A stretch of DNA of 55,876 bases from Psammoneis japonica (lineage: Eukaryota). Below the pieces are notes generated by a model that was not told the origin of the DNA, made no database searches, and saw nothing but the letters and a program-made list of their open reading frames with translations. Below, piece by piece: positions 11,799-45,900 of this stretch. The translations under genes were made by a program, and so were the position numbers. The stretch lies in the NCBI GenBank assembly GCA_008632985.1, contig QPGO01000212.1:62001-117876 (forward strand), given 5' to 3'. Numbering within the stretch: the first letter of the stretch is position 1; each line of letters begins with the position of its first letter.

Positions 11799-12212
11799 GG
11801 CGCTGTGAAGGGGGGCGCTTGCTTGACAGACAAGTCGACGGTGATAGTGTGAATGGGAAACGCGGATAATGAGCCGTCGAAAGGATGCAATTTGGATTTG
11901 GATGCTGAGGTGATCCGATTGTATGTACACGAATTTAATACTGAATTCTACGTACAGTACAATAGAGTCACCCCTTTTTACGTACCGCGGTTACCACCGC
12001 TTTGCTCATGCGTGCTTCGTATCGGGGATGGACGAGCGCGCTCCTGGAGTGAACGGCGGGTTCAAACCGCTGGTCGCGCGCTCTCTTCTAACGTGATGTA
12101 GGTGTCATGCAATGTATTGTGTACTTGGAGTGGAGATGGCTTTACTGGCGCTGTGAAGGTCTTCTCCCTGCCCAAAGCTGGACGGCAGGGCCAGAGGGCG
12201 GGAGAGGTGGGA

Positions 12213-12321
12213 GCGATTGAACTGCACCAACGACAGCGGCTTGTCTTTGTCAATCTTGAAAGAATGAGACAAGCTGGTGATCGAGGAAAGAAAACAAACA
12301 ACCCAACCTTTACAGCACGTT
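12213..12321. repeat. Terminal direct repeat, copy 2 (109 bp)
   Basis: Matches 17036-17144 except 5 nt, all at TA/TG, CA/TG or CG/TG positions. Confidence 0.95.
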
Positions 12322-12344
12322 GGGGTGATGACACCAGTGCAGAA

Positions 12345-13440
12345 TCAATGGAGGAACACTTGGAGGAAGAGGATGGTGTTGATGGTGTCTTCGAGAAATG
12401 GGCTGATGGCCAGCTGGCGGCAAAAGTCGACCCAAAGGTTCCAGTGGGCATCGGCGGCGGTGGATCGGGAAGAGGCAATGCCGCGTTGCACTGCGTCCTG
12501 CACAGCGCTGAGATCACGCAGGAATGCAGTGCGGGTGGCGGGGTCCACAGATGCCAAGACTTGTTCTGTGGACAAGCAGAGTTCAGGCAAGAAAGAAACG
12601 CGACGTCAGAGAGGTGTTGCAGGCGCGGAGCGTCGTCACCAGCACGGCTCCAAATGCCCGGGTGGCAATCATGGAGGCCGATGTAACGGTGTTGGCGTTG
12701 ATGGTGCGCTTGAAGCCTGAGGAGTTTTGAAGCTGGTTTGGCCGTGGTGGCAGATCCCTTGCGTTGCCAGTGCATGGTGCCAAGGTTGTCGGTGCGGTTG
12801 AGGTTGGTGCGCTCGCGGACATCGTAAGTGTCGGCAGCGGCGTGGGTGTGGACGACACTGCCGACGAGTTCAAGGTCGGTGTTGGTGATTGGGCCGTGTG
12901 GATTTTTGTGTGTGGCGAGGGAGTCCATGACATCCTTGGGGAATTGCAGGTGCCACGCTGTGGGCCTGGGTCACGTTGGGTGCGACGTCGACCAGAGGAA
13001 TGGCGCAGCTTGGCGGCTCGTGGGACTGCAGTGGGAGTTGGCACGAGCACCCCGCCCGCTCCGTGACCGGCAGCATCGTGACAACCGTGAACAGTTGGGG
13101 GCAGTGGTGCGAGCTCTTGGATGCGGATGGGACGTGAATCCAGGGATTGGCAGAGATTGCAAAAATCATCCAGTGTGGAATGTACGTTGGCCGCAAGATG
13201 GATGCGTGAGTCCGGTGTGGTGTGGCGGAGTGCCTCCTGCAATTCGGAGAACAGGCCTCGCGAGCCGGGCATGGCCACCGCGAGGGAACGTAATTCTCCC
13301 AGGAGTTTCTGATGATCTTGAACGGCAATGCGCTTGCATGAGCGGGGAAAGTCCTTGTAGAGTGTGTCGTGCAGTCGTGCGCGATGGCGTGGGGTGAGTC
13401 GGAGTGTCATCGACAGTGTGTCGATCAACCAACCTAACAC
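12345..13440 (-). pseudogene. RT thumb / RNase H and truncated YR start of the Ngaro/DIRS-like element
   Basis: LGWLIDT, LLGELRSL, HDAAGHGAGGV, ITNTDLELVG and RTDN, spread over two frames. Confidence 0.7.
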
Positions 13441-16400
13441 CTCTTTTTCTGTGTTGACCAGGTGGCGTCACCCTTGCGGAGCTTTTTAACAGACACAGGC
13501 TCCTTGTGGGCGGCAACGTTGTCCGCATCAGTGGGGTGAAACATGTCATCGATCGCGTGCAATGGCACATGATGCATGTTCCGTCGGGCTGCAGTGGACC
13601 CCTGCACGGCGCCGACAAAGTCATCGATGCATGTGTCGATGTGGGCTAAACGTCGGCGGCGACTCGGATTGAGGTGTGGATCTGGCAACGTTGGAACCAG
13701 CACGGCTGTTGTTGGGGGAGGTGATGTTGGTGGGGGTGCATGGGTGGGTGCGCGACTGGATGCCAATTGCTCCAACGGGTGGGGTGGCACCGTCCCGGCG
13801 CGTGCTGGCTGTAAGTTGGCTAGATCTGCCACCATCTCGGTGGCAGCGCTGAAGCACGGTGGCGAGTTTGCCCAGCCCATGGGCAACCGAGTGGGTGTGG
13901 CGACCAGCGGGGGTTCACCCGGCAAGTGTGGGAAAACCACGCCAAGTCGTTGGGCGCTGTCGGGATTGAGATGCATCTGACAGAAGCCATCCGCTAGATC
14001 AACCTTCATGAGGTAGACGTGACCGTGCGATGGGTTGGCCAGCAAAATGCGGCGCAACAACCGGTCGAGTGTGCGTCCGAACTGCATGGCTTCCATCGGG
14101 GTGTTTGGCTGAGTCGCGTCGTTTGTGCCGCAGAATGTACAGTCAACGATTGGTCGCGGCCGACGTCCACACTGGGGTGCTACGCCGATGGGGCTCAGCC
14201 GCAATCCGGGCATTCCCTTTATTTCCTCACATGGGAGGACCACCCAGAAACCCTTGTCGACGCAATCGGCCACATCCTCCCGGAGGAATTCAATGTGCTC
14301 GCAGGCGGACTTGTGTGGCCCCCTGGCCAAACTTGCTTCAAGCTCCTGAGGTGTCCATGGTGCATCTGCGAGGGTGATGGGGACACCGCGGTGTTTGCAG
14401 TTCCGCAGCAGCCTGTGGGCTGGGTGACCACGTGTGTGGCACAGCAGTCCCCAATCCCCTCTGCCACTGCGGTGATGCAACAAGTAACTTGGTCCTCCAA
14501 GGCGCAGCAAATTTGTGTCACGTAATGTGCGCTCACCTAATTTGTCAGTCTGCACAGCATTGGCAACAGCCTGTGTGCGTGATGTGCTGTGGTTGTTGCT
14601 GTCTGTGAATCTCTCCGCCTGTGGGGGTGGCGGCACTGCCAACAACACCGGTGGCAGCTGACATGGCTCTCGGCCCCGAGTCGCCGAACTCGGGCCATTG
14701 CCGATGACCTGTTCGGTCTTCCAATGCTCCGTCGCCCACGTGAGGAGGTTCGCTTGGTCGCTCTCCGCGTGGTTATGATGGTCAGCAACACAACCACAAA
14801 TGGAATTGCACTGCCCTTTCAAGTGGTGCGGGAGGCACCGTGGGTTTCCTTGCGCATCAACCGGCAGTGCGACTCTGTTCTGGGTGCAACGATGCTTCAC
14901 CTCGCGTGACCTCATGTTGGGACGGTCGCGGATGGCATTAAACCGTTCATCGCATTGGGGGTTGCGCACCAGCGTGTTGTCGCCCGGCACGCCTGGATGG
15001 GGATTTTGTGTGGTGCCACCCACTGGTTGTGACACCGCCGGGAGCATGGCAGCTGGGGCAGGTGCGCTCCCGGCCACCAATGTGATGGTCGGGGGCAACT
15101 TGCATCGCCAAGAATCGTTCCCCTTCGAAGCATCGCCGACCACCCGGCGCGCATGGAATGGAGCTGCAGCGTTGTAGGCTGTCTCCTGCAACCAGAACCA
15201 TGACATGAGCTCCACCTGCATGTGACGCTGGATGTCCGCAACTGGCATTGGGTTCCGTGAGCACTCCACAGCCAAGTCCTCGGCGCAGGTGTCCAGGTCC
15301 TCTCGTGAATCCACAAAGTGCCTGACCACAGGGTGACCCGCGCCAAGAAGGGTTGCCAGTGCGACGCGTGTGCTCTCCAAACAGCATTGGAGAGATTCGA
15401 ATGTGGTGGTTGCCCGAGCATCGTCTGGTGTTTCCAGCACCACAGTGTCGGCAAGACTGGGCCGACTGTCGCTGCCATGAATTTGGCAGCACATGGCAGC
15501 ACGGTGTGCAATCTGCTGCACTTGCTCCGGGGTCGTGAGGCCGAATTGATGCGGGTTAACTCCTTGCACGGGATCATCCCTGTTGTCCCCAGCGAAGTTG
15601 AAACTCATCAATTTTGACACCAAGCTGACAGTGACTGGGATGCGAAACCACACTCCCAGGGCGCGGCGTGTCTCATCCACTGCATTCTGGACCTCCGTAA
15701 TGCATCCCGCCTTGGAAGCCCGCGTGAGACGTGGCCACATGGGTGGCAGCTGATCCTCGGTGTACACTTGGCAGAGCCGCGTGAGCTTGTACACGCCCAG
15801 GTTGCCGAACGCCTGCACCGGCGTCTTTCCTTGTTCGGCTGCTCGCTGGCGAGCCTGCACGTCAATGCGTGACTGCTGTTGCTCAGCAGTGAGTCTGTCG
15901 ATTGCCCTCACCACTGGCGCAATGTGATGGGGCGGGAGAACTAGCTCGTTGCGTCCTGGCAGGTCTAGATTGACCTTCTGGTCGAAGCACCGAATGAGTG
16001 CCGAGTTCGGTGGTCGTGGCAAGACTGGCCAATCCCGTGTCACTGCAGACACGTTGGGGTCCGCCGCCATGGCAGTGCAAGCCACCTTGAGACAGTCCAA
16101 CAATGGGCGTAACGCGTCAACTTCATTCCTGGCAGTCACCGCTCCCAGAATTCGTGTGAACGCCTGCTTGGGCGGCAACCCCCCGGGAAGAAGCATGTTC
16201 ACGCAGGCGAAGGGGACATGCATCGTGAATCGTGTGCGTGCTTCTGCCGTGTTCGCTGCGTGGGGGTCCGCCGGGCCTGCCAAACCTTCAGGGTGCACCG
16301 TGATCTCCGTGGCCATCCTGGCGTCATCCAGGACAAATGCACCAGCGGCGGCGAGGCCCATCTCTTCCGGAGGGTGTGGTGCCACCGTGAGCTGGTTGGT

Positions 16401-16963
16401 GACCAGGTCCCCGGCTGGGGCATGGGTGTTTCTGTCCCAAGGCTGAGCGGGTCCAACAACAGTGGTCGGGTGGGTTGAAGCGCGATGATGCACTTGAACC
16501 ATCCCTTCATCCAGCACGCCCTGCACGCGGCAGAGGCACGTCAACGCCATCAGCACGTTGTGTTCCGATGCCGCAGATGCCCTCTGCGCTGGGGCTTGTG
16601 GGTTGCAGCGGGGATGGGCATTGCACACGGGCAGCAAAATCAATCATGGGCTCAGCATGGACTCCTTGGTGTGGGTCCTTGTTGTTCACCATGAAGCAAT
16701 CATGGCACGTCCTGAGGTTTCCCTGTTGTGGGATCTGGGCTGCGCCGGCTTGCTGCACTGGTTGGGCAGCTGCCTGTGGCTGTGCGCCCGGCCCCCCTTG
16801 TGGCGCTTGGCCTGCGGGTGCACCTGGTGGTGGCTGGGCCGGTTGTCCTGCTGGTGGCACAGGGTGCACCGGCGGAGGCGGCACATTTGGCGGTGGTTGC
16901 TGTGGTTGCCCGGGGCGGTTGCCCGCCCCCTTGGTTCACAGCGTTTGGTGGCTGGTTGTTCAT
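13434..16963 (-). pseudogene. Gag (C-terminal Cys/His finger) plus reverse transcriptase of the Ngaro/DIRS-like element
   Basis: Gag finger CLPHHLKGQCNSICGCVADH. RT motifs LSPIGVAPQ..RRPRPIVDCTF, KVDLADGFCQM, RLPMGWANSPPCF and TCIDDF (YxDD with Y->C). P/Q-rich N-terminal part lies in another frame. Confidence 0.8.
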
Positions 16964-17035
16964 GCTGCGAGTTGCGTCGACTTCTTTCTGCGATGGGGCA
17001 AAGACGGCGGAGGCATCCTGCGTCGAGGTCTTGTG

Positions 17036-17144
17036 GCGATTAAACTACACTGACGACAGCGGCTTGTCTTTGTCAATCTTGAAAGAATGAGACAAGCCGG
17101 TGATCGAGGAAAGAAAACAAACAACCCAACCTTTACAGCACGTT
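17036..17144. repeat. Terminal direct repeat, copy 1 (109 bp)
   Basis: Matches 12213-12321. Confidence 0.95.
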
Positions 17145-17544
17145 CAACGTGCATGCGTGGTTCAACAGGCAATGGGTCTTCTCCCCGATTCTGGCACTGG
17201 GTGAGGACAGTGCCCACGAAGATCGCGTTTCGGGCTTCGGGCAAATTGGTCCCAGTCCATGATGAGGCCGGCCATCCAGCAGTTCCTCCCAGCCAGATAG
17301 AAGAAGAAGAGAAAAGGAAAAGGAAGGAAAAAAACAAACATTGATGAAGGTTTGAAAGGGTGCGCTGCAGCACCGCAGTGCGCACAGCAGTGAAGACGGA
17401 CGCAGACAGGTGCAGACGCGCTGCGTGGAATTTGGTGCGAAGTGTCACACGTTTGCGTGCGCAGAAGGATGTGGATCACCAACGGCTGGAATGAAGCAGC
17501 ACACCACACAGCAGTCAGTGCAGCTCTGTCATCACGGCGCTAGA

Positions 17545-18999
17545 ATGGCGGAGGACAACATCGTTGCGTCTGGCAAAGCAGAGGATGCAGCAGCTCCGGA
17601 AGTCATGGCAGAAGTCACGGGCGCCGAAGGCGCGGCGGCAGCTGCCATGACTGCACTTGGCGCTGAGGGAAGTGCCGAGGGTGTGTCCGTCGAGTCCGAA
17701 TGCGCAAGGATGTCGGAGAAGCCGGCGCAGTCCCAAACTGAAAAGAGGGAGAAAGCCGTGCCGCCAGAGCCAACCTTTCAAATTTGTGGTTGGAATGAAG
17801 CACAGCAGCTGGGTCACACCGCCGAGCAGCTCCTTGAGGCCGGTTACAAGATCGAGTTGGTGGGTGATCAGGCCACCTTTGTGAAACCGGAGGTCCCACC
17901 TTTTTGCAGCGGCAAAAGCGAGGAGGCAGCCAATCCCGCGGCCAAAGTGGTCGCGAAAGCAACGGCGGAAGAGGAAGAAGAAGGAAAGCAATTTCCGGAC
18001 CCCAACGATCCGTCATTCGACTTGTGGGACTGGGTGTTGCGGCACGAAAAATCCGACAATTTCCAGGAGTCCATGTGCCTGATGAAGGATGCGCCGAACA
18101 ATCCCGACCTCTGGTTCCCCGCGCTGGGAGAACTGGGGTGCATCAGGAGCGACCCTGAAGCCGTCGCGAATGCTCACGGCGATCACTGCAAGTGGGTGTG
18201 GAGGTGCCGCACGGAAGTCGGCGAGAGGGGCATCCCAGACTCAACGCCGAAGAGCAACAAAGTGTTCAAGACCGCCGTCGAGGCTTTCAAAGCGGGGTGG
18301 TTGCTCGCACTGGTCCACCTCGTGAAGAGAGCAAGTGCAGAAGTGTGCACATTTGGATGAGGCGCTGTGTCACTTCAACCTGCGTTGTTTTGCCTCGAAA
18401 AGTCCGTTTGCTCCGCAGGCCCCAAGGAGGTGGAGGTGGGTGAGCTACGCGCATCGCAACGGAGGGGCACAGGCATTGGTTTTTTTGCTTTGCGCCAGTT
18501 CCAGAAAGGCAGCACGGTTGGAATCTACGTGGGCCCCAGGGTGCCCGGTGCGACGAGGAGCCACTCGTGGTGCGACCACGACAGCAAGTTTGGAGAAGAC
18601 CACAGCGTGTGCTGCTCCACCATCCGTGACAGCGAGGGCTGCCACGTCACAGTGGAGCCAAAACCGCTTGATTTTAGCGGTCCAGGGAACAAGAATTCCC
18701 ATCCACTCTGCCTCGGAATGCACTGCGTGAACGATGCCACCGAGTCGTTCAAGGACAAGAAGAAGATCAAGGCAAGCCAACACGTGGACAACAACTGCGA
18801 GTTCTACAATGACGGGTGCTTGGCAGTCACGAAGCGAATCATGCCCGGGGAGGAATTTCTCTGCAGATGCAACTTGGACGAATCGGAGAAGAAGAAGAGG
18901 AAGGTGACGTCAGGTGCCATGAATCGGAAGAAGAAATCGCGTCTACTCCCCAAGTCGGGGGGGAGAAGCTCTGCGTCTGGCAAAACGTTCACCGTGTAG
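17545..18999 (+). pseudogene. SET-domain protein (TE cargo) with an in-frame TGA at 18358-18360
   Basis: ORFs 17410-18360 and 18367-18999 are in the same frame. SET motifs: GIGFFALRQFQKGSTVGIYVG, LGMHCVND (NH motif region) and VTKRIMPGEEFLCRCN (cf. I.xGEEL..xY). Basic NLS-like tail. Confidence 0.7.
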
Positions 19000-19221
19000 T
19001 GTGCTCTGTAAATTAGCAGCACAGTGTGTTGGTGTTTTTCAGCGAAACTGCAGCATTAGTTGGAAAGGCGCAGCCCCAGTTGTGGCTCGAAAAATGGGAA
19101 CAAGGAAGAACAGAAAGTCGGTAAATTTGCGCAAACCCAGCAAATTAGCAGGTGCCTGCACAGTCGCCTGAGTGCAGAAAGTCAGTAAATTTACGCAAAT
19201 TTAGCAAGTTATTTTGTGCTG

Positions 19222-20655
19222 TCACAGTCGCCTGAGAATGGTCTCTTCCTCTAGAGAAAGGGGGATTGAATTGTCATTCTTGCCCACTGCAGCACTCTTC
19301 AGGTAGAGAGACACGCAGAAGAACTCGTCATTTGAGTTTGTCCTGCTGGAGATGCAGTGGCACTTGGTGGGGTTAAAAATGATGACATCACCAAGCCGGA
19401 GTGCAGCGGAGATGCCTTCGGTGGGGAAGCAGAAGTGCGCCACAATCCCGTCATTCATGGTGTGGCTGCCGGACGGAGGGACTCCCACCACGGTGACTGC
19501 TGACAGGAAGAAGTCCTGGTCCCGATGGGCATTGAGGAAGACATTGCGCCCAGCTGCCAGAGAGGAGAAAATGCCATCTGACCGCACCAGGGATTTCCAG
19601 TTGTGAAACTTTTTGACACGAGCGACACCCTTGAGGATGGCACAGTCCACGCACTCATTGACAAGGTGCTCCATGCGTGAAAGAAGTCTGGTGAGGTGGT
19701 GAGTGTGTTGGTCAGCTGTGCCAGGCTGCTTGCAAGAAATTCGAGCGTCTCTCGTGGCAGCCAGGCCAATCGTGGAACACTTGCTCCTGTCCGTCTCCAT
19801 GAAGGTAACGCGTTGTTTGCCGCGCACGGTGGACTGGGCGGTGCAGCATTCTAGTGCTTCGAGCGCTCGGCACTGAGCAACCAGTTCTGCTGGGTTGGGG
19901 GAGCTGAACACCACAGCAGAACGCGGCAGCAGGGTGCAGGTGTTGTCGCAGTGGCAACCGTCCAAGCCAAAGAAAGGCTTCAGATCGAGCACAGGGTCAC
20001 AGACGACCAGAGGAGCCAAATCGGCAAAGTCAATGTCAGCAAGACAAGGTGGCACAGGCTGAGTGTAGTCGCCGTTACAAACTGGAGTGCGGTTGGCTAC
20101 GCAGTGCATGGAGAGACTCTCAGTGGCGCACGGCGCGAGTGGAACAAGGCAAGTGATCTTGGATGTTTTCCCACTGGCGCGGCTGCGGATTCGCCTGCGG
20201 CTGCGGCGGGCCTTGCGAAGTGGCGGTTGAGCCCTCAACACGTTCTCGCACATCCTGGTGCGCATTGACGATGCGGTGTTCGCAGAGAACGTGTGTGCGA
20301 ACTTGCCGGTAAATGCTCCGCTGCTTGACACTGTCACTGTTGTCTCAACAGTGCCCAAAGCAGAACTCTGTCGACAGGGACCGGCGGACTCCAGGGGAGT
20401 GGGGTCAAAACCCAATCGAGAGATGTGTCTGCTTTCCGTTGCCTCAAGAGCACCCAAAGCAAAACTCTGTTGACAGGGACCGGCGGACTCCAGGGGAGTG
20501 GGGTTGAAACCCAATCGCGAGAAGCATTTGCTTGTTGCCAGGCTGCGAGCTGCACGTCCCAAACCCCCATGCTGTCGAGACCGGCTGTAACTCGATCGCG
20601 ACAAGTGCTTGTCGTTGGCAGGACGACGCAGCAAGGCACGAGGCAGTTGTGACAT
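19222..20655 (-). CDS. 2OG-Fe(II) dioxygenase, TET/JBP-like (TE cargo, TpA-mutated)
   Basis: HxD in NAHRDQDF; DSBH strands FCFPTEGISAALRLGDVIIFNP; distal His in KCHCISSR; terminal strand CVSLYLK. Spacing resembles transposon-associated TET/JBP domains, but the canonical 2OG-binding Arg is not obvious. Confidence 0.6.
   Translation of the reverse strand: MSQLPRALLRRPANDKHLSRSSYSRSRQHGGLGRAARSLATSKCFSRLGFNPTPLESAGPCQQSFALGALEATESRHISRLGFDPTPLESAGPCRQSSALGTVETTVTVSSSGAFTGKFAHTFSANTASSMRTRMCENVLRAQPPLRKARRSRRRIRSRASGKTSKITCLVPLAPCATESLSMHCVANRTPVCNGDYTQPVPPCLADIDFADLAPLVVCDPVLDLKPFFGLDGCHCDNTCTLLPRSAVVFSSPNPAELVAQCRALEALECCTAQSTVRGKQRVTFMETDRSKCSTIGLAATRDARISCKQPGTADQHTHHLTRLLSRMEHLVNECVDCAILKGVARVKKFHNWKSLVRSDGIFSSLAAGRNVFLNAHRDQDFFLSAVTVVGVPPSGSHTMNDGIVAHFCFPTEGISAALRLGDVIIFNPTKCHCISSRTNSNDEFFCVSLYLKSAAVGKNDNSIPLSLEEETILRRL
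20354..20522. repeat. In-frame tandem duplication (99-bp period) in the N-terminus of the dioxygenase ORF
   Basis: SRLGFNPTPLESAGPCQQS / SRLGFDPTPLESAGPCRQS. Confidence 0.9.
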
Positions 20656-24830: not shown

Positions 24831-24899
24831 GAAAAAACAACCATTTTTGCTGAGCAACTTCTTGAAATTTGTTGAGTCAAAGTGTCAGCTTAAATTAAA

Positions 24900-33118: not shown

Positions 33119-33359
33119 GGCGGGTCCGATCTCATGGATGATTTGTAATGATGAACGATGGACGGTGGAGGGCCGCACCACATTGGCATCGATCGCACAT
33201 CACACATCATCCACATCACAATCACACATCACACATCGCGCATGCACGCGCTCATAGACGAGAGACGAGAACTACGGTAACAAGCAGCAGGCGCATGATG
33301 TTGTCGTCTACCGGCAGGGGGGGAGGAACGATCGGCACAAAGCAGCAGCCACACATCTG

Positions 33360-36300: not shown

Positions 36301-39100
36301 ACCACTGTGCAAGTAAAGCAGGAGACTCAGTGTCAACCATAAAGTCCACATTGAAATCTCCGAAGAGGATTGCCTTGTGATTTTGGTCCACGAGAAAATC
36401 CTGGAGCAACCAAGATAAATCCAAGCAGAATGCTTTCTGAGGATCAGTGTTTTGATGGCCTTGTTGGTGCAATGATGATGCCTGCTGGGCATGTGCAGCA
36501 GTCCTGCCGGGAGTCTTTTGGTTCTTTGAACAAAGATGGTGGCACGACACAAACATGACTTGCAATCTGTTTTGTCTGTCATAAACTTGGATGGACCAGC
36601 AACCCAGGGTCAGATCCCTGACTCCAACATCTGTCAGAGATTGAGTTTCCCGAGAAAAGAGCTGTGCCTCCTGGCTTGTGTCGAGTGGTGAAAGGAGCAG
36701 AGCTGCATGAGAATGTGCTGCGACCATGACTTGTTGAGTTTTGAATGGCTGACCGACAAGTTGACAGAATGTCACACTGAGTGGTGTCCAGGCACACTTC
36801 TGAAATTCCAACTGCATCAGCTTGAATCTTGTTGGCAATCTGGCAATGGCCCAGAATGTCTCTGCCTCTTTTGTCAAATTTGCACCCATTTGCGTTGAAG
36901 GCATGCAGTCTCATGTGATGAGGAAGCTTTGGTTGGAGATCATCACCGATTGACTCGTTTGTTTGCAGGTGAGAGAAATCAACAATGCGACGTTCCACAG
37001 AGGGGCTGCAGCTTCCACCATCTAAAAGTGACTGCCAGGCTTGTGCAGAAGAGTCACAGCAAACATCACTGCTCATGAGTGGGTCATGCTCCTCCAAGAA
37101 GAAGACTGGGGCTCAGAGCAATGCACAGAGTTGAGTGCAGGGAGAGGGACAAACTGCAGGGACGAGAAGGACAAATTGTCAGCACCAAGAGGTGTGTGGC
37201 AAAAGACATGGGCAAGAGCAAGGGAAGTGGTGCCATGTGGAAGAACATCCAGAGGATGCCTGATTGTTTGTGGGGGTGGAGGTGGCAAAGTCCAACCCCT
37301 TTTCAAAAATCCTTCTCCTTGTCACAAAGATCTCTGGAGTGATCTGGCATTTCCATGTTGTTTGGGCATTTTCCCGCAGAGCTCTGTGCAGTTTGACTTG
37401 CCTGCAGCAGTTGGACAATTTGATTCATTTGTGCCTGCATGCCTGCCAGTTGCTGGGTGGGCTGTGACTGCAAGGCTGCCATGTCTTGGGTGTGTTGTTT
37501 GGCAAACACAGAGCTCAATGCCTCCATGTCCTGGGAGTGCTGTTGGCAGAGCTCTTCCAAAGCCTTGTCATTTTTCTCTTGCATCTTGGACACTTTTGCC
37601 ATTTGTGTCAAGCAAGGGAGGAGCTTGAGGTGGACTGTGCAGCTTGAGCACAGGAATGTTGGGGTGTTTTTCACCACTGCGTGTGGCAGAAATTGCAAAG
37701 TGACATTCGTGCTGTGGAGACGACACCCAATTGGTCACGTTGACATTCGTGATTTGGTTGTTGTGGTTGTCAAGGATCTTAACATCCTTGTGGTGAGTGA
37801 AGAGAATCTGCTGCAGGACTTGCAAAGAGTGGTGACAAGGGTCATGGGCTCACACAATGCCTCTGGGCCATGAACATCAAAACGGATGGTGATCTCTTCA
37901 AAATGATGCTCTTTTGGCTTGGAAGCAGGCTTGAGGGATGAGTCATCCACAGTGACATCGTCTGCCACAGTGGAATTGTTGGGAGGAGCAGGGGTGTGGC
38001 TGCCGTCAGTGACGGAAGAAGACGCCATGGTGGTTGGCTGTTCTGTGGAGGACCTGGCATTGAAAACATGCAGGCAGGTTCAATGCAAATGTGCACAGAA
38101 TTGTGCAGCAAGAACACAACAGATGAGCAGCACTTTGAAAAGTGCTGGAAGCTTCAAGTTGATTGATGCCATTGCTGCATTGTTGGTGCTTGTTGCGGAT
38201 GATAGATCATGACAGGCTTGGACACTTGGGCACACATTTGGAGAGGCTCCCAATGCTGTGATTGGTGCCTGACTGGTGTGTTGTTGATGTGCGGACATTG
38301 TTCCACCAATTCTGGCATGCCCTCCTCATCATTGTTGTCATTGCTGCACTTGTCAATGTCATGCTGGTTGTTGCAACACTTGTTGCTGTCACACTCAGCT
38401 TTTTCCACCTCCATTTGCTCAGCTGAGAGAAATTTTTTAGACTGAAGAACAGGGGCACACATTGCAATGGAGAAGTGTCTTGCTCCACGAGTGCCTCTTG
38501 TCTGGGTTAAAAGTTAACATGTGGAGTGTCTCCACCCAAACATCTCCTTTTTCACCAATGCCTCTGCAGCAACACATGCCAAGCTCAAATTGTGTCTCCC
38601 TGCAGCTGAGATTGCCACAGCTGCAGAAGCAATTGTCCATCATTTTTGATTTGGCTTGTTGGATGAAATGTTGGTGATGGTGTCAGCTTCTTGCTTCTGT
38701 TTGTCCAGTGGCACAGTTTTTCCATCCCAGCCCCCCATTGCAACCAAATGCCCACCTTGATCAACCAACAGCATGCAGATGCAAAGTTCAGCACACTTTT
38801 GGGAGCCTGGAATGGGGTGAATGTTGGCCACTTGGCCAATCACTGAATGAATGTTGACTCTCGCACTTGCCCGTGTGACAAAGTTGCTCCATGAAAAGTC
38901 AGCTCCACTTTGAAATGCCAGATGCCATGAACAATGCACCTGTTCATTCTTGCAAGACATTGGTTCAAAGAGCACACACCTTGTGTGCTTTGTGGCTCCA
39001 GCTGGAACATCCCAGAAATGACCTCAAACAGCCATTTTGTCATTTAAAAAGGAGTCATTCTGTGAAAATGCTTTGAACAAAAGTCATTTTTAATGGATCA
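33360..39100 (-). mobile_element. Heavily decayed non-LTR (LINE) retrotransposon with APE endonuclease and RT, possibly Ambal-like
   Basis: RT remnants GTGQGSGNSP (~34420-34448), CIDDTS, LELPKCSF, HKTLG. APE remnants FNANG, VGISE, ILFGDFN (~36350-36370). Many stops and frameshifts; strong CpG and TpA depletion. Boundaries approximate. Confidence 0.7.
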
Positions 39101-39390
39101 CAAAGCACTTGATTGGTCATGGAAACAAGCGTTGGGCATGGCGAATTTGTCCAACTGATGACTTCAGTTGAAGTTTAAGAACAACCAATTGGAGAAACAG
39201 AACATCTCGTTCTTAGCGCCAGTCAGAAATTGACACCATGTGAGGTGTCAAAATCAATTCCAACACCATGTGTGGTGTCAAAATTTTTGTTTTAATGACA
39301 TCATCTGCAAAAGTGCCTCATGAGCCCCAAATGACCATGTGGATGAATTCTGCACACTTGCATTTTCACACTTTGTTTGTGTTCCAGTCA

Positions 39391-39552
39391 AACAAATCTC
39401 GATGCAACACAAGGACAAGTGCAACACCTTAAGCCTGAGAGAAAGCAAAGATGCTGTCAATGTGAACCTAAACCTGATTAGATTGTGGGGGAGAATGATC
39501 ATCACCACGTGTGTCTTCCCCTGACCAGGGACAGACCACTCCATCCAAATTC
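39391..39552 (-). repeat. Copia 3' LTR
   Basis: Aligns without gaps to 44477-44638. Confidence 0.9.
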
Positions 39553-39847
39553 CTTGGGTCCCCACAAAACGGCAACGACAGTGCCGATTCGTCCAAAACA
39601 AGTGACATCCTCTCACAAAGAGGCAAACCACAAAACCCAAATTAGACCGCCAGCCGAGCTGGCTTGGGAGGCCGGAGCACGTGGACGCAAGTCACAAGTG
39701 CCCGGCCCTGGTGTCAGGACCCCACCAAAAGATGCAAGAACACAGTTTCCAACGCTGCTCTCCCATGACCATTTTCGCAAGTAGATCTGCCAAGTTCATT
39801 TCTGCATCCTCCTTTCCAACACGAATGACACCCGCTGCAACTGCCTC

Positions 39848-41998
39848 TCACACCACATGACAGTTGATGGCATTGTGCTTCTTGTGCAAAACCGATTCAG
39901 GAACACTCACATTCTTCACAACACCACGATTGTCATAAAAGACACTTGCTGGTCCTTTGAGTGGTGCTCCGAACATCCGCAACTTGTGTTGTAGAGCAAC
40001 AATCAATTCCTTGCAAATCCGCATCGCGACCAACTCACTCCCAAACGTCGCTGACTCGACTGTGTTCTGCCGCTTGCTGAACCACATGATCAGTGCATTG
40101 TTGACAAATGTCAAGATTCCACTGTGAGACCTGCAAGTTACAACATTGCCTGCATGGCCAGCATCAACAAAGGCACAGATGTTTGCCAGGTTGCCACAAG
40201 GCTTTGGTGCTTGCGGCGGCAGTTCCTCTTCAACGTCCCCGCAAAACTCAGTCCAATCAGCATTCAAATTGAAAATGTGCTCATCAATCACTGGCTCCTT
40301 TGGATTGAACCCAATGCGTCCAACATTCTGATGCTTCTTCACATGTGCAAACACATGATGCAATGCTTCAAGGTGCCCCTTCCTTGGATTAGCTTGATGC
40401 TGGGACAGAATTGAGACTTCATGCAAGATGTCAATGTGGCCCAACTCGATTGCCCAGCGGCAAATTCCCATCAACTGCAAGTGCCTGTCCACTAAATCCA
40501 GGCCCACCTTGTCAGTTACATCCAGCTCTGGTTTGCACCTTGGGGGCAAAGGATCCTTCACGCCATTCTTCAAAACTTCTCCATTCCCATCCTCATCCAA
40601 GAGACCTTCTGCGGTCTTCATCGCCATCTTGACGTGTGCTCTTGGGGAGCTCGCCCAAATTGTGCAACCATCCTCGGTTTGGACCTTTTCGACGTTAGCT
40701 CCAAGGTGGACCTCTGGTTCTCCTTCACTGCCAGGCTTCACGGTAAAGTGCTCACCTGTGGCAGCAACAACAGACTTTCCCTGATGGGAGATGATTGGAA
40801 TGTCGTTGACACAAACCAAAAGCATCTCACAATGCTCGTGCCCATCCTCTTGGGTTGCTGCACACAGATGAACGCCAGGGTCCACTCTCATTGATTCAAA
40901 GCCCAAGTTGTGTGAGACTGATGCCAATGCGGACCTCCAAGAGCATCCCAAGCTCTTCAGACCGCACAATGCCCGAGTGACAACAAGCACCTTTCCTTGG
41001 CATTTGCCACACTCCTTGCCACCTTCGAACCATGTCTTCTCTGCACACGGTGCGTTCAAGTGTGCATTCTCCAGATCCATTGCCATGATGTCGACTCCAT
41101 TCAAAGCTGCCAGCAGAAACCCCAGACGTGTGCTGTCTCTAGAAATGATGCTTGAGCATGTGATCAATGATGGAGCCTCTGTTGTGTGACCTCCTGCCAC
41201 GAATCTTGCCTTCCTGGTAAAGTCCATCTTGACATCAAATGCCAGGTGGCACCTGATCTCCTGATGGCCACGCAGAGTTGCACTCTTTCCTTCCCGCACT
41301 GCCTGTGGGGTCTCAGCCTCATGCTTGCGCCATGCCACCTTTACCTTTTCCATCTCCCATGACAAACTGCCATCTTTCCAGCTGACCAGCAGCTTCCAAC
41401 CCTTGGCAGCAATCCTCTTCTTCTCCTTCCTGTCAGTGGCACACATGATTCCATCAGAGATTGGTGCAGCATTGCCCGTCTTGTTGTGATTCTGCATCTC
41501 ATGCAAGACAGAGCATTGGTTGCCTTCACTGTTGACCTGAGCAAACACATTCTCAGCAACCACATTGGCCGCACACTTGTCTGTGGTGCCGTCGGTGCAC
41601 TCCACTTCACACTCAAGAGTGTCAAACAATGGGTTTTGGTGTTGAGTTCCAATTGGACGCCCATCCTGTCCTCTTGCTCGTTTTGTCATGACACCTCGCC
41701 TCTCACCGTCGGTTCCAACATCAAACATAAGTTCCACACCCAAGCATTGATCTGTCGCTTGTTCGTCATCATCCTCTGGCCATTTGTCTGACAACAACAT
41801 GTCCCCGGCAAGCCCATGTTGACTTCTGTTGGGTTCCATGCATTGCCGGTCAAGAGCACAACCGGTGAGTTCTGCTCCTCCCATTCTGTTGGAGAACACA
41901 AGATTTGAAAGATGCAACTGTCCCCTTTGCAGTGAAAGGGATGAAAGCCTCATCAGCTTCAATGCCAAAACCGTTTCGAGCATTGTAAGGGTTGTCAT
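39848..41998 (-). pseudogene. Copia pol (RT-RNaseH), Tyr almost eliminated
   Basis: Copia RT/RNaseH motifs present; one Tyr counted in 716 aa. Confidence 0.9.
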
Positions 41999-44474
41999 GT
42001 GCAGGCATGTTGTGCGCCCACAACTGATTAAGGTTCAAGAGTGAATGTTCCATGTCCATTCCAAACCAAAGCATCTGATTGCCAACCAGCAGATGCTCGC
42101 GAGTTGTTTCCAGATCCGTCCATGCAGCGCAACAATGTGCCACGGGAGCCTGTTTAATCGGCTCACATGAGTCTAAAAATGGGTGAACTTCACACACTTC
42201 ATTTGTTGGCTCCATGAGTTTCCAATTTGCTCTGGCACAACATGCATCCATGTGAGCATCACATTCATTCAGAGCAACAAAATTGGGTGTCGTCAAATTT
42301 GTCATTGGGGTGGAGCTTGTCAATCAAATCACATGTTTTGATGTCACAGCAATGCACCTCATTGTTGCCGTTTCATTCAATTGATAAGATGGGTGGGGTT
42401 TGGGTGGCAGGAACAAGAACAATGCAACCAAAACATGCAAGCACACCACATGCGCCAAGATTCCAGTTGCTGCAACCACCCCCAGCAGGCAAGTGGAACT
42501 GTGACAAGCTCCACGACCGAAAGCATGACCGTTGCATCTGCCACAATCACGGTCAGCACCGCAACCATGACCGCTCACTTCATTCTGCACTTGTCTGTTC
42601 TGTGCACCTTGGCCCTCTTGATGGATCTGGGCTTCGGCTGCATGCCTGCTGCCCCTGTCACATCTGCACCATCCTGCTGAAGAACCACGACCACCACCAC
42701 ATCCTCCTTGTCCCGCTTGTTTGCAAGCTTGGAAAACACAGTCAACCCCTCCATTGAAATGGAGTTTGTCCCATTCCTGGGGGGAAAAACTTCTTGTGGG
42801 GTCAGACACATTGACCCCATTGATCTTGGTGGTGTGGTTGCCACCTCCACCTTGGCCTTGATGTCTGCCGCATCCTCCGCCGTGACCAAATCTACCTCCG
42901 TGACCACGGCCCCTTTGGAAACCTTGACCGCTGCCACCACCATGGCTCAATTTGGAAATTTTTCATTTTGTGCAATGTCGGGCTTCTAACTGAGCACCTG
43001 TGTGCAAACAAGAGACTTTGGATGAGAAGAAAGCACATGCCCCTGTGAAGTCTTGAGGGTGCTGACTGCTGACAACAGTCGTTGCTGCAATGAGATGAGG
43101 GTCATTGGACCGGATTCCTTTCAAAAGGATCTCCACCTTCTGCTGTTCTGACTTGCGATCATCCGGGGTTTGTGCAAAGTGGCAAATGTGCTGGCAAGCT
43201 TTTCATTGAACTTTTCAAATGGGAGTGACCCTTCCTTCTTGTAAAACAGCGATTCAACAGTGGCCGTCACCAAGTGGATGCACTTGCCAAGCTTGCCCTG
43301 TCCATTGCAATGGTTGACCCATGCATTGAATGCTCCATGCCCATTCTCTGTTTTGTTGAATGGTTCAATTCAAGCCCATCCAGCAGTGTCAATCAAGCAT
43401 TCTTTCAACATGCGAAACATGCTGTGATTGTCCTCGTCAAATGCACTGCCATTCAATGGCAACTGATGCATGCACTCCTGTTGAGCATCCGTAAACTCGG
43501 CTGGCACTGGCATGGTCCTCACCACATGTCAAAGTGGCTCTTTCAATGTGCCAAACTTCTGTGCCAAAAGATTCAAGAAGCGTCTTCACAGACATCAAAG
43601 TCCTCGGACTTAAATTTGACAAGACTGCTTGCCAATGCGTCCGACTCTGTACATTCCTTTTTGACACATTGACCGTTTTGAGCCGCAGCCATGGCTGCTG
43701 CATTAAAGTCCACCGCAATGAGTGCTTGGTTCCTTTTCATGCAATCCTGGCACCACCACACTGGTGACTGTAAGTTCTTGATTTGAACAGTGCCAAGAAT
43801 CACATGGCCATCTTCCACAGCACGACGAGCCACCCTTTGCGCCAAGTCTTCAACATCATGGTCGTTCTCCATGACAGCAATGTTTTCCAGGGTCACAAAC
43901 CCTTCACAGAAAACCAACCTTGCCCTTGCATTCTGGTCAACAACACCACAAACCTGTGATGCTGTGTCTGCGTCAGCTGTTGTGGCCAGAGCCACAAGTG
44001 CCGATGCTGGTGCTGCTGCCGCTGCCATCCCACAATGAAGAAAATGTGAATGTCCCATGTGGGGGAGCATGCAGCTGTGAGTCTGCATGGTCATGGAGGC
44101 TGCACTTTTCCGGTGTTGTGACAATGGGTTCACACAGCCACCCGACATCAGGATGATCAGTCCTGTGTCATTTGATTCGTTGAGCATGCACTCAGGCGTG
44201 TCACCCAATGCCGCAGTCCCTTCACACCCATTGCAAATGTGAAGACAGTGACTGTCTTTGTGAGCATTTTCCATTGCAAGCTGTTCTGTGGATTGCACAG
44301 GCAACACAAGATGCATCTTTGTGTGCATCAATCCGAGCTCCAATGCAACGCGTGCGGTTCAGCACCAATTCTACAGCTGCAGGTTCCATGCAAACAACAC
44401 AATGAACAACCGTTCATGACAAATTGTTTTCACAGCCGTTTTCGACCAGCGTTTCACTGATGGCTGTGACAAAG

Positions 44475-44639
44475 TGAATAAATCTCGATGCAATGCAAGG
44501 ACAAGTGCAGTGCCTTGAGCCTGATAGAAAGTAAAGATGCCATCAACGTGAACCCAAACCTGATTGGATTGTGGGAGAGAACAATCATCACCACGTGTGT
44601 CTGCCCCTGACCGGGGACAGACCACTCCATCCAAACTCA
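44475..44639 (-). repeat. Copia 5' LTR (TG...CA on the minus strand)
   Basis: Minus strand begins TGAGTTTGG and ends TTTATTCA; aligns to 39391-39552. Confidence 0.9.
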
Positions 44640-45900
44640 TTTGCAGCAACATCTGGTTGTGCCACAGTGGCATTTGAAAGTGTGCGTTTTTGCTCAAAAT
44701 TCCCATGCAAACTGCCTCCACCATGGCATCTCATCCAGCATCCCCCCCATTGCCAGAATGTTCCCTCCAATGACCCACATCACCTGTGAACGTGCACAGA
44801 GACGAGACGGACATTGGCAAGAGTGACAAGCTGCAGAGCTCCCTGCAAACCAGCAACAGTGGATGACACGTGTGCCAGCAAGAAAGAGTGTCAGAAGCAG
44901 TTTTCAGAGAGATCTGCTCATCTGTCTGGGTCTGACCATCATCCATGCACTCGGCATGCTGACACAGAGAGATCTGCTCATCTGCCTGGGGGTCTGACCA
45001 TCATCCATGCACTCAGCATGCTGACACCATCCCCTGATCTGCAATGTCTTGCAAGACAATGCAGGTCACAAAGAAAGAAGAAATGCAAAAGCACACCACA
45101 CCCAACATGAAAACAACCTTGCCAATGGAAAGGTGCTGTGGCAAAACGGGCGATGCAAGAAACGGCCAAGCTTGCAATGCACAAAGAATTCACAAAGGAC
45201 AACAATGTCTTCACAAAGTCTCTGATGGCAGAGCAGGGCATGTGCACTGATCTGTTGAAGCCTTTGACAAAAAAGTCAATGGCAGTTTCCAACAAATCTT
45301 GCAGGTCAATCGAGTGTTGAGCCAAAGAACAGCTCTGTCAATCAACAAGCAACAAAAAAAGAACAAGGGATGCTCTGGCAAGTCACAATGTTGCTGATTC
45401 TCATCTGGCAAAATGGGGCTGGATGGAAATTCACCATGGCATGTGATGCATCAAAAAGGAAGTGACAGCAGCCCATCAGACAAAACAGCACTTCTGCCAC
45501 ATTTTGTTTTGCGTCTCCATGTGCGCCGCTCTGCAGCACGATGGAATCTGAAATCGTTTCACAGAGCTTCTTGCACATCTGGCTGAAGGGAGATGAACAA
45601 TGTTGGGTGGACTGAGTTGAGGATTTTCTTCTGGCTTATGCTGCTGGATTGTCTCAACTGCTGCTGCCTCTGCTGCGGAAATGACGACGATCGCCGCTTC
45701 CCCAGTGCTTCGAGGCCAAACTCATCTGCCATGATCACACTGGGAAAAAAAGACCAAATCACCGCCAGAAGCAAGTGTTGCAGTGGAGACTGCTGAGGCA
45801 GATGCAGCAGCACAACAAAAACAACAACTGCGACAATGACACAATGACAACAGCAGACTCAGACACCGCCATGTTCTACACACATGCATGCAGAAAACAT
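44640..45900. mobile_element. Unclassified TpA/CpG-depleted TE remnant with a ~59-bp tandem duplication (44906-45026)
   Basis: cagagagatctgctcatctg...tctgaccatcatccatgcactc.gcatgctgaca occurs twice; composition matches the neighbouring TEs. Confidence 0.4.

Follow-up and report, generated by a model that had tools for sequence, protein, structure and literature searches.

Mobile elements in this stretch of the Psammoneis japonica genome (the window; 55,876 nt of contig QPGO01000212.1) were hit after integration by a DNA hypermutation that converts TpA to TpG or CpA (A:T to G:C) and that spared the neighbouring single-copy genes. POLE phylogeny places the host among the diatoms (stramenopiles); the window is nuclear DNA. 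We consider it likely that the full explanation is a defensive TpA hypermutation exerted on integrated elements by a nuclear DNA adenine deaminase. By analogy, the process would be of the same kind as that measured in mutation-accumulation lines of Bigelowiella natans, where integrated giant-virus and virophage DNA undergoes TpA to TpG/CpA hypermutation (main text of Mettrop et al., bioRxiv 10.64898/2026.01.13.699255, 2026); the earlier note on this DNA, which knew of no described eukaryotic pathway of this sort, is superseded on that point.

TpA depletion and the elements it affects

In the window, several mobile elements lie between ordinary genes: a Helitron, an LTR retrotransposon of Copia type, a retroelement whose termini are direct repeats, and others that are unclassified. 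No viral gene was found in it, the targets being transposons of several classes. The features are as follows, with rho denoting the observed/expected dinucleotide ratio and expected TpA counts set at the host ratio.

1400..2500: small TpA-depleted fragment, rho 0.15 (10 TpA, 38 expected), outside the 12100..45900 range of the earlier note
1336-2181, + strand: ORF mostly inside that fragment, 0.4% Tyr, 6% Cys
3500..6000, + strand: partly depleted element, rho 0.35 (59 TpA, 98 expected, P 1.5e-5), also outside that range
3890-6235, + strand: DUF7869 ORF within the partly depleted element, 1.8% Tyr
6300..12100: host flank, rho TpA 0.58 (normal)
7253-8176, + strand: alpha/beta hydrolase gene in this flank
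9102-11730, - strand: subtilase gene in this flank
12100..31300: hypermutated block 1, rho TpA 0.19, TpG 1.49, CpA 1.45, CpG 0.83, GC 0.54
12181..17144, - strand: retroelement-like unit bounded by direct repeats (12213-12321 and 17036-17144), rho TpA 0.16
13434-16643, - strand: 1069-aa ORF of this unit, 5 Tyr, CIDD motif
17145..24180: unclassified TpA-poor sequence with long open frames, rho 0.19
24894..30424, + strand: Helitron Rep-helicase in two frames (24894-29222 and 29183-30424) with DUF6570, Helitron_like_N and PIF1, rho TpA 0.20
31300..33100, - strand: unmutated island between the blocks, rho TpA 0.65
32219-33199, - strand: class-I SAM methyltransferase-like ORF in the island, 2.4% Tyr
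33100..45800: hypermutated block 2, rho TpA 0.09, TpG 1.81, CpA 1.71, CpG 0.33
39391..44641, - strand: Copia-type LTR retrotransposon, rho TpA 0.10, aligned LTR cores 39391-39555 and 44477-44641
39848-42034, - strand: Copia pol ORF with RVT_2, 1 Tyr in 728 aa
45800..55876, + strand: host flank, rho TpA 0.58 (normal)
46488-52703, + strand: exons of the DNA polymerase epsilon (POLE) catalytic subunit in this flank, 4-4.5% Tyr

As the earlier note had claimed, TpA is scarce in the elements of 12100..45900 (rho 0.19 and 0.09 versus 0.58 in the gene flanks), and the scarcity is confined to mobile-element blocks, the flanking genes and a 1.8-kb island keeping normal TpA. Block 1 contains 187 TpA against 584 expected (Poisson P 7e-82) and block 2 contains 73 against 479 (P 8e-119), whereas the island has 77 against 69. 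TpG and CpA ratios reach 1.45-1.81 in the blocks compared with 1.13-1.19 in host DNA, and TG is about as frequent as CA (1720 versus 1761 and 1399 versus 1393), a both-strand signature. TpA is dense up to position 12143, between 31339 and 33146, and from 45981 onwards; the block edges are sharper than ~150 bp, and the normal TpA of the island implies that the process stops less than ~150 bp from element ends. The partly depleted element at 3500..6000 is possibly a younger or less exposed one.

The Helitron and Copia identities are supported by Pfam and by relatives. The earlier label Ngaro-like for the unit at 12181..17144 has behind it the direct repeats at its ends and an RVT_1 match below threshold (E 0.019), and the Ngaro/DIRS assignment was not confirmed; nor was the label LINE, for which the sole hint was Exo_endo_phos2 (E 0.099). 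Pfam searches of the ORF at 1336-2181 and of the open frames in 17145..24180 gave no match.

Direction, timing and sequence context of the changes

Tyrosine accounts for 5/1069, 5/1442, 4/413 and 1/728 residues in the element ORFs, and for 8/307 in the host hydrolase and 25/553 in a POLE exon. Manual counts made earlier were near exact (7/303 and 1/716 became 8/307 and 1/728 on recounting), and the motifs reported with them were all found (CIDD, ALCGLK, CVND, AHLNA, GHQEI, HVVLSR). Where at least 70% of relatives have Tyr (24 Helitron and 32 Copia relatives), the window has Tyr at 2, Cys at 16, His at 6 and Phe at 3 of 27 Helitron columns, and Tyr at 0, Cys at 7, His at 7 and Met at 1 of 15 Copia columns; pooled, the 42 columns hold 2 Tyr, 23 Cys and 13 His. 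Conserved Cys, His and Gln were kept at 100% in both elements, Gly at 94-96%, and Trp at 100% in the Helitron and 89% in Copia. Cys and His outcomes at conserved Tyr, with Cys, His and Gln nearly all kept, bear out a directed TA to TG/CA change on both strands. The relatives do not already lack these Tyr: they contain 2.6-4.8% Tyr and conserve it at positions that are now Cys or His. Among the residues lost are two conserved Tyr of the Helitron Rep with YxxxY spacing (residues 881 and 885, now Cys and His), which probably form the catalytic pair within the Rep motif, and the YVDD of the Copia reverse transcriptase has become CVND. A change of TpA to TpG or CpA never makes a stop codon and removes TAA and TAG, which explains why frames stay open for more than 1000 codons despite destroyed conserved residues.

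Elements that had always been TpA-poor, through codon usage, UpA avoidance in RNA or a biased donor genome, would give a similar composition, and TpA is indeed under-represented in most genomes, this host included (rho 0.58). However, all 80 metagenomic Copia relatives have a rho TpA of at least 0.38 (0.38-1.09, median ~0.70), and they keep normal TpA in every codon phase (13.5, 14.1 and 18.2 TpA per kb in nine close relatives versus 0.7, 3.3 and 3.3 here). The depletion spans all three phases and extends into noncoding DNA (44642-45800, rho TpA 0.014), and the bias is common to four unrelated element types and absent from the genes between them. Native composition is contradicted by the relatives' TpA, the Tyr columns and the all-phase loss, and we give it practically no credence; the TpA loss is mutational. 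Assuming a starting rho near 0.6-0.7, the level of the Copia relatives and of host DNA, the elements have lost ~70-85% of the TpA they once had.

The two Copia LTRs differ at 21 of 165 nt, and 13 of these differences lie at TA/TG/CA sites (null mean 4.2; 13 reached in 0/2000 simulations). At four sites one LTR carries CA where the other carries TG, and at five TA stands opposite TG/CA. Since the differences fall mainly at such sites, it was integrated DNA that acquired the changes, in either strand. The terminal repeats of the unit at 12181..17144 point the same way, 4 of 5 differences being of this type in the 109-nt core and, when the alignment is extended to 141 nt, 4 of 19 (p 0.04). No excess of TA-site differences was seen in three of the seven repeat pairs, one of them host-side (p 0.20, 0.60 and 0.83). 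Together with the Helitron, a DNA transposon as heavily affected as the retroelements, the LTR divergence upholds the proposed action on integrated DNA. It contradicts, as do the Helitron data, RNA-level A-to-I editing of element transcripts by an ADAR-like enzyme, fixed by reverse transcription, since LTRs of one insertion that differ at these sites need a change later than cDNA synthesis; the depleted noncoding stretches also oppose such editing. To our knowledge, ADARs are known only from animals. Several affected elements are retroelements, and TpA suits the preference of ADARs for a 5' U, a point made in the Discussion of Mettrop et al.; overall, we regard editing at the RNA level as extremely improbable.

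The same LTRs bear on a base-calling or assembly artefact in which a modified base at heterochromatic TpA is misread as G or C. The only runs found, contigs of one coded sample, may be those from which the assembly was made. A systematic miscall should affect both LTRs equally, so the different readings of two LTRs with identical local context oppose an artefact. Contigs of the possibly non-independent run repeat the TpA-poor sequence (38035-38877: 843 nt, 3 differences); the same Cys/His pattern, with outcomes differing at the same Tyr columns, is seen in 4 of 190 database relatives; and the B. natans mutations came, according to the main text of Mettrop et al., from Illumina reads. Misreading is therefore highly improbable. 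Among the 40 variants listed of 3127, a small and selected sample, 21 lie in the element blocks and 3 of 16 transitions there fall at TA/TG sites, so that present-day copy differences are not visibly dominated by the TpA process.

Surviving TpA differ in context from the TpA of relatives (chi-square 230, p 2e-44), with survival at 0.04x for ATAT, 0.08x for ATAC and 3.3x for CTAG. ATAT and ATAC make up 0/69 survivors in the Helitron, 0/32 in the unit at 12181..17144 and 4/71 in a third element, compared with 28.6% in relatives. An additive rate model fits, with relative rates by the base 3' of A of ~9-13 (T), 3-4 (C), 1 (A) and 1 (G). The hierarchy is TAT > TAC >> TAA ~ TAG, a strong preference for A with a pyrimidine on its 3' side. 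For the element at 3500..6000, which is partly mutated, the context shift was a trend (p 0.11), and a polarised test on Tyr codons gave no significant context preference (odds ratio 2.1, p 0.48).

We also considered spontaneous or light-induced TpA damage that arises genome-wide, is repaired in active chromatin and persists in silent transposons. The blocks do coincide with silent-looking mobile elements, and the main hypermutable region of B. natans is described in the main text of Mettrop et al. as transcriptionally silent, with only some lines mutating. Yet untranslated host DNA adjoining the blocks keeps normal or high TpA (rho 0.70 at 11751-12000, 0.92 at 31501 and 0.66-0.85 at 46001-46251), ~80% of TpA sites were lost as against ~5% for the remaining Copia LTR differences, and an enzyme is suggested by the TAT > TAC > TAR hierarchy and by the strictness of the A:T to G:C outcome. 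Differential repair thus appears very unlikely.

The putative agent and related systems

Targeted hypermutation would most likely be the work of a nuclear DNA adenine deaminase that turns A into inosine, read as G; a mark of chromatin or small-RNA type may direct it to DNA that is silenced or repeated. Elements would be killed through missense load, and the process may in this way serve genome defence. Because TpA is its own reverse complement, adenine deamination and thymine modification are indistinguishable by sequence, and all counts equally fit a T-directed enzyme preferring A or G 5' of T: a TET/JBP-like oxidase acting on (A/G)TA would yield 5-hydroxymethyl- or 5-formyl-uracil, and T to C changes would follow from its mispairing with G. 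In favour of such thymine chemistry, 5-hydroxymethyluracil is enriched at TpA and TpC in dinoflagellate DNA. On the other hand, we know of no direct enzymatic route from T to C, and for ~80% of sites to disappear, oxidised T would need to mispair very efficiently. Adenine deamination is also favoured in the main text of Mettrop et al., which names an ADAT2-like protein as candidate enzyme for B. natans. Taken together, we consider thymine chemistry unlikely.

The main text of the same study reports that 230 of 231 new mutations in two viral insertions were A to G or T to C, all at TpA, that a single-copy region is hit, and that low-TpA coding sequences are enriched in reverse transcriptase and DDE domains. 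Common to both cases are the A to G and T to C changes at TpA on both strands, the restriction to foreign DNA in an otherwise ordinary genome and the long-term footprint of low TpA with high CpA and TpG. The B. natans host, however, is a chlorarachniophyte (rhizarian), the insertions are viral instead of transposons of several classes, rho TpA of the giant-virus region is 0.45 compared with the far deeper 0.09-0.19 here, and new mutations were measured, whereas the diatom case is known from its footprint. The main text of that paper, where the words 'context' and 'trinucleotide' occur 0 times, contains neither the TAT > TAC >> TAR hierarchy nor the stop-codon consequence. A genome defence of this type, resembling DNA editing, has been reported once before, in an unrelated alga; our analysis adds a second lineage, transposon targets and a more extreme footprint.

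RIP of ascomycete fungi is likewise a host process that introduces dinucleotide-context transitions into integrated mobile DNA, in sharp blocks beside normal genes. It changes C to T (mostly CpA to TpA), creates TpA, lowers GC and makes stops, whereas the diatom process removes TpA, raises GC (0.54 in block 1 versus 0.48 in host DNA) and cannot make stops. ADAR hyper-editing of repeat-derived dsRNA in animals resembles the diatom process in its A to G outcome, 5' U/T preference and targeting of repeats, but its substrate is RNA, whereas a DNA substrate is indicated here by the DNA transposon and post-integration LTR divergence; moreover, ADARs favour G 3' of the edited A, where the diatom process favours T and C. 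Deaminases of the TadA/ADAT2 type, including DNA-editing activities and laboratory adenine base editors, would share with the putative diatom enzyme adenine deamination read as G. Their natural substrate, A34, always follows U33, which places it in a UA context, as is also true of TadA's own UAC site, but the 3' T preference seen in the diatom corresponds to no known feature of the tRNA site.

Decay of 5-methylcytosine at CpG also raises TpG and CpA but cannot remove TpA, and block 1 has lost most of its TpA with CpG near normal (rho 0.83). Block 2 is CpG-poor (rho 0.33), which indicates that a second, methylation-type decay is superimposed there.

Extent of the TpA deficit and the elements concerned

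Across the whole window, the observed/expected ratio (rho) is 0.33 for TpA and about 1.4 for TpG/CpA. The earlier note had described the transposon sequence at about 12.1–45.9 kb as TpA-poor, and this is borne out when the two transposon blocks found there are set against the flanking genes; depleted stretches also occur outside the range that it covered.

TpA content along the window (expected counts at the host ratio of the flanking genes)
12100–31300: block 1, TpA 187 versus 584 expected, rho 0.19
33100–45800: block 2, TpA 73 versus 479 expected, rho 0.09
31300–33100: island of 1.8 kb between the blocks, TpA 77 versus 69 expected, normal
Flanking gene regions, both sides: rho 0.58
1400–2500: stretch outside the range of the earlier note, rho 0.15
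3500–6000: partly depleted stretch outside that range, rho 0.35

Within the blocks, rho of TpG and CpA is raised to 1.45–1.81, with almost balanced TpG/CpA counts (1720/1761 in block 1, 1399/1393 in block 2). On the left of block 1, TpA is dense up to position 12143 and then occurs 3 times in the following 700 nt; on its right, it is sparse up to 31213 and dense from 31339. Block 2 begins between dense TpA up to 33146 and sparse TpA beyond 33309, and ends between sparse TpA up to 45877 and dense TpA from 45981. Since the edges are thus narrower than about 150 bp, and flanks and island are normal, the depletion is confined to mobile-element DNA within these 56 kb of one genome. Non-coding DNA is affected as well, the segment 44642–45800 having one TpA and a rho of 0.014. 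The window holds a single N, at 54469.

Mobile elements, repeats and host genes
24894–30424: Helitron Rep-helicase (Pfam DUF6570, Helitron_like_N, PIF1)
24181–24804: tandem array with a 247-nt unit, directly upstream of the Helitron ORF
30000–31300: very high-copy repeat at the 3' side of the Helitron, summed contig depth about 4000 versus 115–300 over host genes, TpA rho 0.10–0.27
39848–42034: Copia-type pol ORF (RVT_2, E 6e-9) between direct LTRs 5086 nt apart
12181–17144: retroelement-like unit labelled 'Ngaro-like', with terminal direct repeats (RVT_1 E 0.019, below the cut-off)
36239–36910: ORF with the sole hint of a LINE (Exo_endo_phos2, E 0.099)
2818–2881 and 7073–7136: 64-nt inverted repeat, 70% complementary, bracketing a DUF7869 ORF
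6269–6755, 20339–20533 and 19111–19236: tandem arrays (units listed: 133-nt at about 177-nt spacing, 96-nt and 62-nt pairs)
32219–33199 (minus strand): class-I SAM methyltransferase-like ORF, untouched, between both hypermutated blocks
Host genes by Pfam: alpha/beta hydrolase, subtilase, methyltransferase-like ORF, DNA polymerase epsilon (POLE)

The Helitron combines a Rep domain (Helitron_like_N) with a PIF1-type helicase, domains shared by 40 relatives at 23–43% identity, and RVT_2 between direct LTRs, with phmmer relatives up to E 1e-170, identifies a Copia/Ty1 LTR retrotransposon. Given the length of these confirmed elements, Pfam scores them very weakly; that RVT_2 reaches only E 6e-9 despite phmmer relatives at E 1e-170 fits heavy missense decay. 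The 1069-aa ORF of the 'Ngaro-like' unit gave neither a tyrosine recombinase match in Pfam nor a match in PDB, where sequence searches with this ORF and with Helitron ORF1 returned nothing usable. For the LINE label, 18 further frames gave no credible match, and at 17.1–24.2 kb and 33.1–39.4 kb no credible family emerged from Pfam at relaxed thresholds over 30 further frames. The 64-nt inverted repeat may represent the terminal inverted repeats of a partly TpA-depleted DNA transposon.

As to the host, the POLE exon is best matched by Fragilaria crotonensis (60% identity), followed by other diatoms (47–56%), other ochrophytes (49–50%) and oomycetes (44–47%). A quick maximum-likelihood tree with 32 rows places it in a clade of 19 rows (SH-aLRT 100), in which every named row is a diatom, and makes it a weakly supported sister to Fragilaria (SH-aLRT 82). 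Tree and identities together make the host a diatom, distinct from the chlorarachniophyte Bigelowiella natans, in which a comparable signature has been reported (see below). Over 46400–48500, within POLE, two sequencing runs (X1 and X2) contain, next to the version of the window, 2–5 variants of it at roughly 88–95% identity; they may represent further haplotypes, paralogues, or related strains within the same sample.

Lost tyrosines and the direction and timing of the change

The motifs quoted in the earlier note were each found in the window sequence, and its claim that conserved Tyr codons have turned into Cys or His codons holds for 36 of 42 conserved Tyr (TAY) columns, which now read TGY or CAY.

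Tyrosines per ORF length
Retroelement ORF (1069 aa): 5/1069
Helitron ORF1: 5/1442
Helitron ORF2: 4/413
Copia pol: 1/728
Host hydrolase: 8/307
POLE exon: 25/553

Tyr makes up 2.6–4.4% of residues in 40/40 Helitron relatives. Aligned with the 24 out of these 40 that exceed 1500 aa (from P0241–P0267), the window has Tyr at 2, Cys at 16, His at 6 and Phe at 3 of the 27 columns that hold Tyr in at least 70% of the 24. Other conserved residues were retained to very different degrees: Cys, His, Gln and Trp to 100%, Gly and Phe to 94%, Val to 60% (replaced by Ala among others) and Ile to 47% (replaced by Val or Thr), the Ile and Val losses being the changes that TA→TG/CA predicts. Residues 881 and 885, spaced YxxxY and Tyr in 23/24 and 24/24 relatives, respectively, have turned into Cys and His; they probably form the catalytic Tyr pair of Rep. 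The Copia element was aligned with 32 relatives of at least 900 aa (from P0281–P0344, among the 150 matches listed), and at none of the 15 columns with conserved Tyr has the window kept it (Cys at 7, His at 7, Met at 1); ALYGLK→ALCGLK and YVDD→CVND are among the changes. The hypermutation destroys function, as both the two Rep tyrosines of the Helitron and the YVDD box of the reverse transcriptase are gone. The ratio of Tyr→Cys to Tyr→His changes is 15:1 in Helitron ORF1 versus 1:5 in ORF2 (Fisher p 0.0013). This might reflect strand-coordinated editing runs in the Helitron, to which the TGY/RCA skew, with no matching sign change between the two ORFs, lends no support.

The loss of TpA is mutational and runs from TA to TG/CA, on three independent lines of evidence, namely outgroups, unmutated DNA relatives and LTR divergence. 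A metagenome scan for Copia relatives gave 530 pattern matches and confirmed 475; in the best 80 of these 475 loci, a choice that may leave out weaker, possibly hypermutated relatives, TpA rho ranges from 0.38 to 1.09 with a median of about 0.70. Over the matched RT-RNaseH region, the TpA density per kb by codon phase is 13.5, 14.1 and 18.2 in nine close relatives versus 0.7, 3.3 and 3.3 in the window, and the loss extends over every codon phase as well as non-coding DNA. Two of the metagenome Copia relatives (L063 and L065) combine a CpG rho of 0.03–0.06 with TpG/CpA at 1.5 and TpA at 0.38–0.47; here, in another organism, methylation-type decay is heavy and TpA loss is not extreme.

Since LTRs are identical at integration, the changes between them arose later, on DNA. 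The 165-nt cores of the two Copia LTRs differ at 21 positions, 18 of them by transitions, and 13 of the 21 differences lie at TA/TG, TA/CA or CA/TG sites, against 4.2 +/- 1.9 under random substitution (13 reached in 0/2000 simulations). At four sites one LTR has CA and the other TG, as expected of an ancestral TA struck independently on opposite strands. RNA editing of the ADAR type, fixed by retrotransposition, was rejected as the source, because the Helitron is affected as well and the LTRs of one insertion diverged afterwards at TA sites. The terminal repeats of the 12–17 kb 'Ngaro-like' element show 4/5 differences of TA type in a 109-nt core, including one CA/TG site, and 4/19 in the 141-nt extended alignment (p 0.04).

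Excess of differences at TA sites in other repeat pairs
D5: p 0.003
D2 a/b: p 0.004
D1: p 0.20
D6: p 0.60
D2 b/c: p 0.83

A base-calling artefact, in which the TpA-poor sequence would have been misread, is unlikely, as the same LTR contexts are read as CA in one case and as TG in its counterpart. Contigs from three sequencing runs reproduce the TpA-poor sequence, with 3 differences in 843 nt (38035–38877); the runs represent one coded sample in contig form, possibly the assembly's own data, and so do not amount to an independent check. From the same runs we looked at 40 of 3127 variant places, a small, selected sample, of which 21 lie in the blocks; 3/16 transitions there fall at TA/TG sites, and the sample gives no support to a TpA process. 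Differences to other copies in the run contigs are about as frequent in one direction as in the other (569 A>G versus 571 G>A, 513 C>T versus 527 T>C), which is expected of unpolarised copy comparisons and hence uninformative.

Target context and open reading frames

The tetranucleotide contexts of the surviving TpA were compared with those of 18,895 TpA from the best 80 of the 475 Copia relatives. The two distributions differ strongly (chi-square 230, p 2e-44), with the same order of contexts when host DNA serves as the control.

Survivors relative to the Copia relatives, by context
ATAT 0.04x, ATAC 0.08x, ATAG 0.38x, ATAA 0.42x, GTAC 0.75x
CTAC 1.6x, GTAA 1.8x, CTAA 2.4x, TTAA 2.6x, CTAG 3.3x

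ATAT and ATAC together account for 28.6% of TpA in the relatives, as compared with 0/69 survivors in the Helitron, 0/32 in the 12–17 kb element and 4/71 at 17–24 kb. An additive model, in which the 3' base determines how fast the A of each strand disappears, fits all ten contexts with relative rates of T 9–13 : C 3–4 : A 1.1 : G 1. The target rule is thus TAT > TAC >> TAR, and this 3'-base preference makes Tyr codons (TAY) the most visible casualties and codon phase 1–2 the most depleted. The choice between Cys and His did not depend detectably on the base before the Tyr codon (polarised changes; odds ratio 2.1, p 0.48), and the context shift in the partly depleted element at 3500–6000 fell short of significance (p 0.11). 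As a rule that any candidate enzyme should reproduce in vitro, the preference is open to direct testing.

Under the genetic code, no stop can arise from TA→TG/CA: TAA→TGA leaves the stop in place, TAA→CAA abolishes it, as do TAG→TGG and TAG→CAG, and TA changes at codon positions 2–3 or spanning a codon boundary lead to sense codons only. The stops that are left are TGA 658, TAA 118 and TAG 117 in block 1, and TGA 638, TAA 78 and TAG 32 in block 2. With no new stops arising and two of the three stop codons being removed, dead elements retain long frames, and the transposon frames here are still open over 728–1442 codons. This sets an annotation trap, as dead elements can be called as 'proteins' of 700–1400 codons that Pfam barely recognises.

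Relation to known systems and a possible enzyme

Fungal RIP (C→T) and the APOBEC/ADAR systems of animals are known cases of programmed mutation directed at invading DNA. A counterpart with A:T→G:C changes in nuclear DNA has been reported once, in a 2026 preprint dealing with one chlorarachniophyte; in our full-text literature search the signature was described there alone and was not found for diatoms. In mutation-accumulation lines of B. natans, two integrated viral regions are described to mutate about 1000-fold above the remaining genome, with 230/231 changes being A→G or T→C and every such change at TpA; low-TpA coding sequences of this alga are enriched for reverse transcriptase and DDE domains, and Mettrop et al. 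proposed an ADAT2-like DNA adenine deaminase (10.64898/2026.01.13.699255). The earlier note's inference of a T:A→C:G mutator acting in TpA context is therefore largely right in substance and had already been anticipated, and its remark that it knew of no described pathway of this sort is superseded by the same preprint (10.64898/2026.01.13.699255).

The window shares with the B. natans system the predominance of A→G/T→C changes (here 36/42 Tyr columns and 18/21 LTR differences that are transitions), the conversion of TpA to TpG/CpA (rho 0.09–0.19; 13/21 LTR sites versus 4.2 expected) and the confinement to integrated foreign or mobile DNA, here as seen over 56 kb. It differs in that the host is a stramenopile, the targets are transposons of several classes, and the footprint is much deeper (rho 0.09–0.19 versus the 0.45 given for the B. 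natans giant-virus region). The window further adds direct evidence of action after integration and the TAY rule, which the main text of the preprint does not mention, the words 'diatom', 'context' and 'trinucleotide' being absent from it (10.64898/2026.01.13.699255). The observation itself is confirmed: the window offers a more extreme case of what has so far been described in this single preprint, and extends it to a second major lineage.

Fungal RIP changes C→T in CpN, creates TpA, lowers GC and introduces premature stops, whereas here TpA is destroyed, GC is raised in block 1 and no stop is created; RIP was accordingly rejected for its opposite chemistry and the lack of created stops. RIP is triggered by duplication, and copy number may or may not play that part here: the present blocks are multi-copy in the run contigs, with summed depths of 200–900, and about 4000 at 30.0–31.3 kb, versus roughly 50 per contig, and in B. 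natans a single-copy region is reported to be struck. CpG decay by 5mC deamination was rejected as the cause of the TpA loss, as it cannot remove TpA and CpG rho in block 1 is 0.83. In block 2 alone it is superimposed on the TpA loss (CpG rho 0.33, falling to 0.14 at 37–39 kb), which explains why GC has risen in block 1 (0.54) and not in block 2 (0.49); two distinct decay processes mark different elements. Diatoms are described to possess enzymes of the DNMT4 type, which are akin to fungal RID and whose function is unknown (PMC9998398); as RID-type chemistry acts on cytosine, DNMT4 is a lead for targeting only.

The change from TA to TG/CA took place on integrated DNA, on both strands about equally, in a context-dependent manner and within the limits of the mobile-element blocks. 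Some enzyme would carry it out, and a DNA adenine deaminase is our best guess, with about even prospects of being right. The main alternative is a thymine-oxidising enzyme, which would leave the same trace: TpA being its own complement, adenine and thymine chemistry are inseparable by sequence. The enzyme, whether adenine deaminase or not, would be steered to its targets by repetition or by a mark of silencing, and the hypermutation would serve genome defence. Going further, we tentatively consider a dedicated DNA adenine-deaminase defence with a TA(Y) rule that silences transposons and integrated viruses by stop-free missense changes, and that would be either old and SAR-wide (stramenopiles, rhizarians) or spread between marine algae; we regard this as possible, with the balance somewhat against it. 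Were such a shared defence real, genomes with and without the footprint could be compared to find the enzyme and its guide.

The deeper footprint on four kinds of transposon in a diatom implies that the process is peculiar neither to one alga nor to viral insertions. It can be studied in diatoms, which are genetically tractable and a major group within the phytoplankton, and a natural enzyme editing A in double-stranded chromosomal DNA would be of interest to base-editing research.

Comparable sequences are already in the databases. Four Copia fragments among 190 database relatives (P0344, P0351, P0375 and P0416) contain 0–0.4% Tyr, 3–5% Cys and 4–6% His, and the three that were aligned (P0351, P0375 and P0416) carry Cys or His at the same conserved Tyr columns in combinations differing from those of the window. 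The same hypermutation is therefore present in these other public sequences, which may stem from the same organism as the window.
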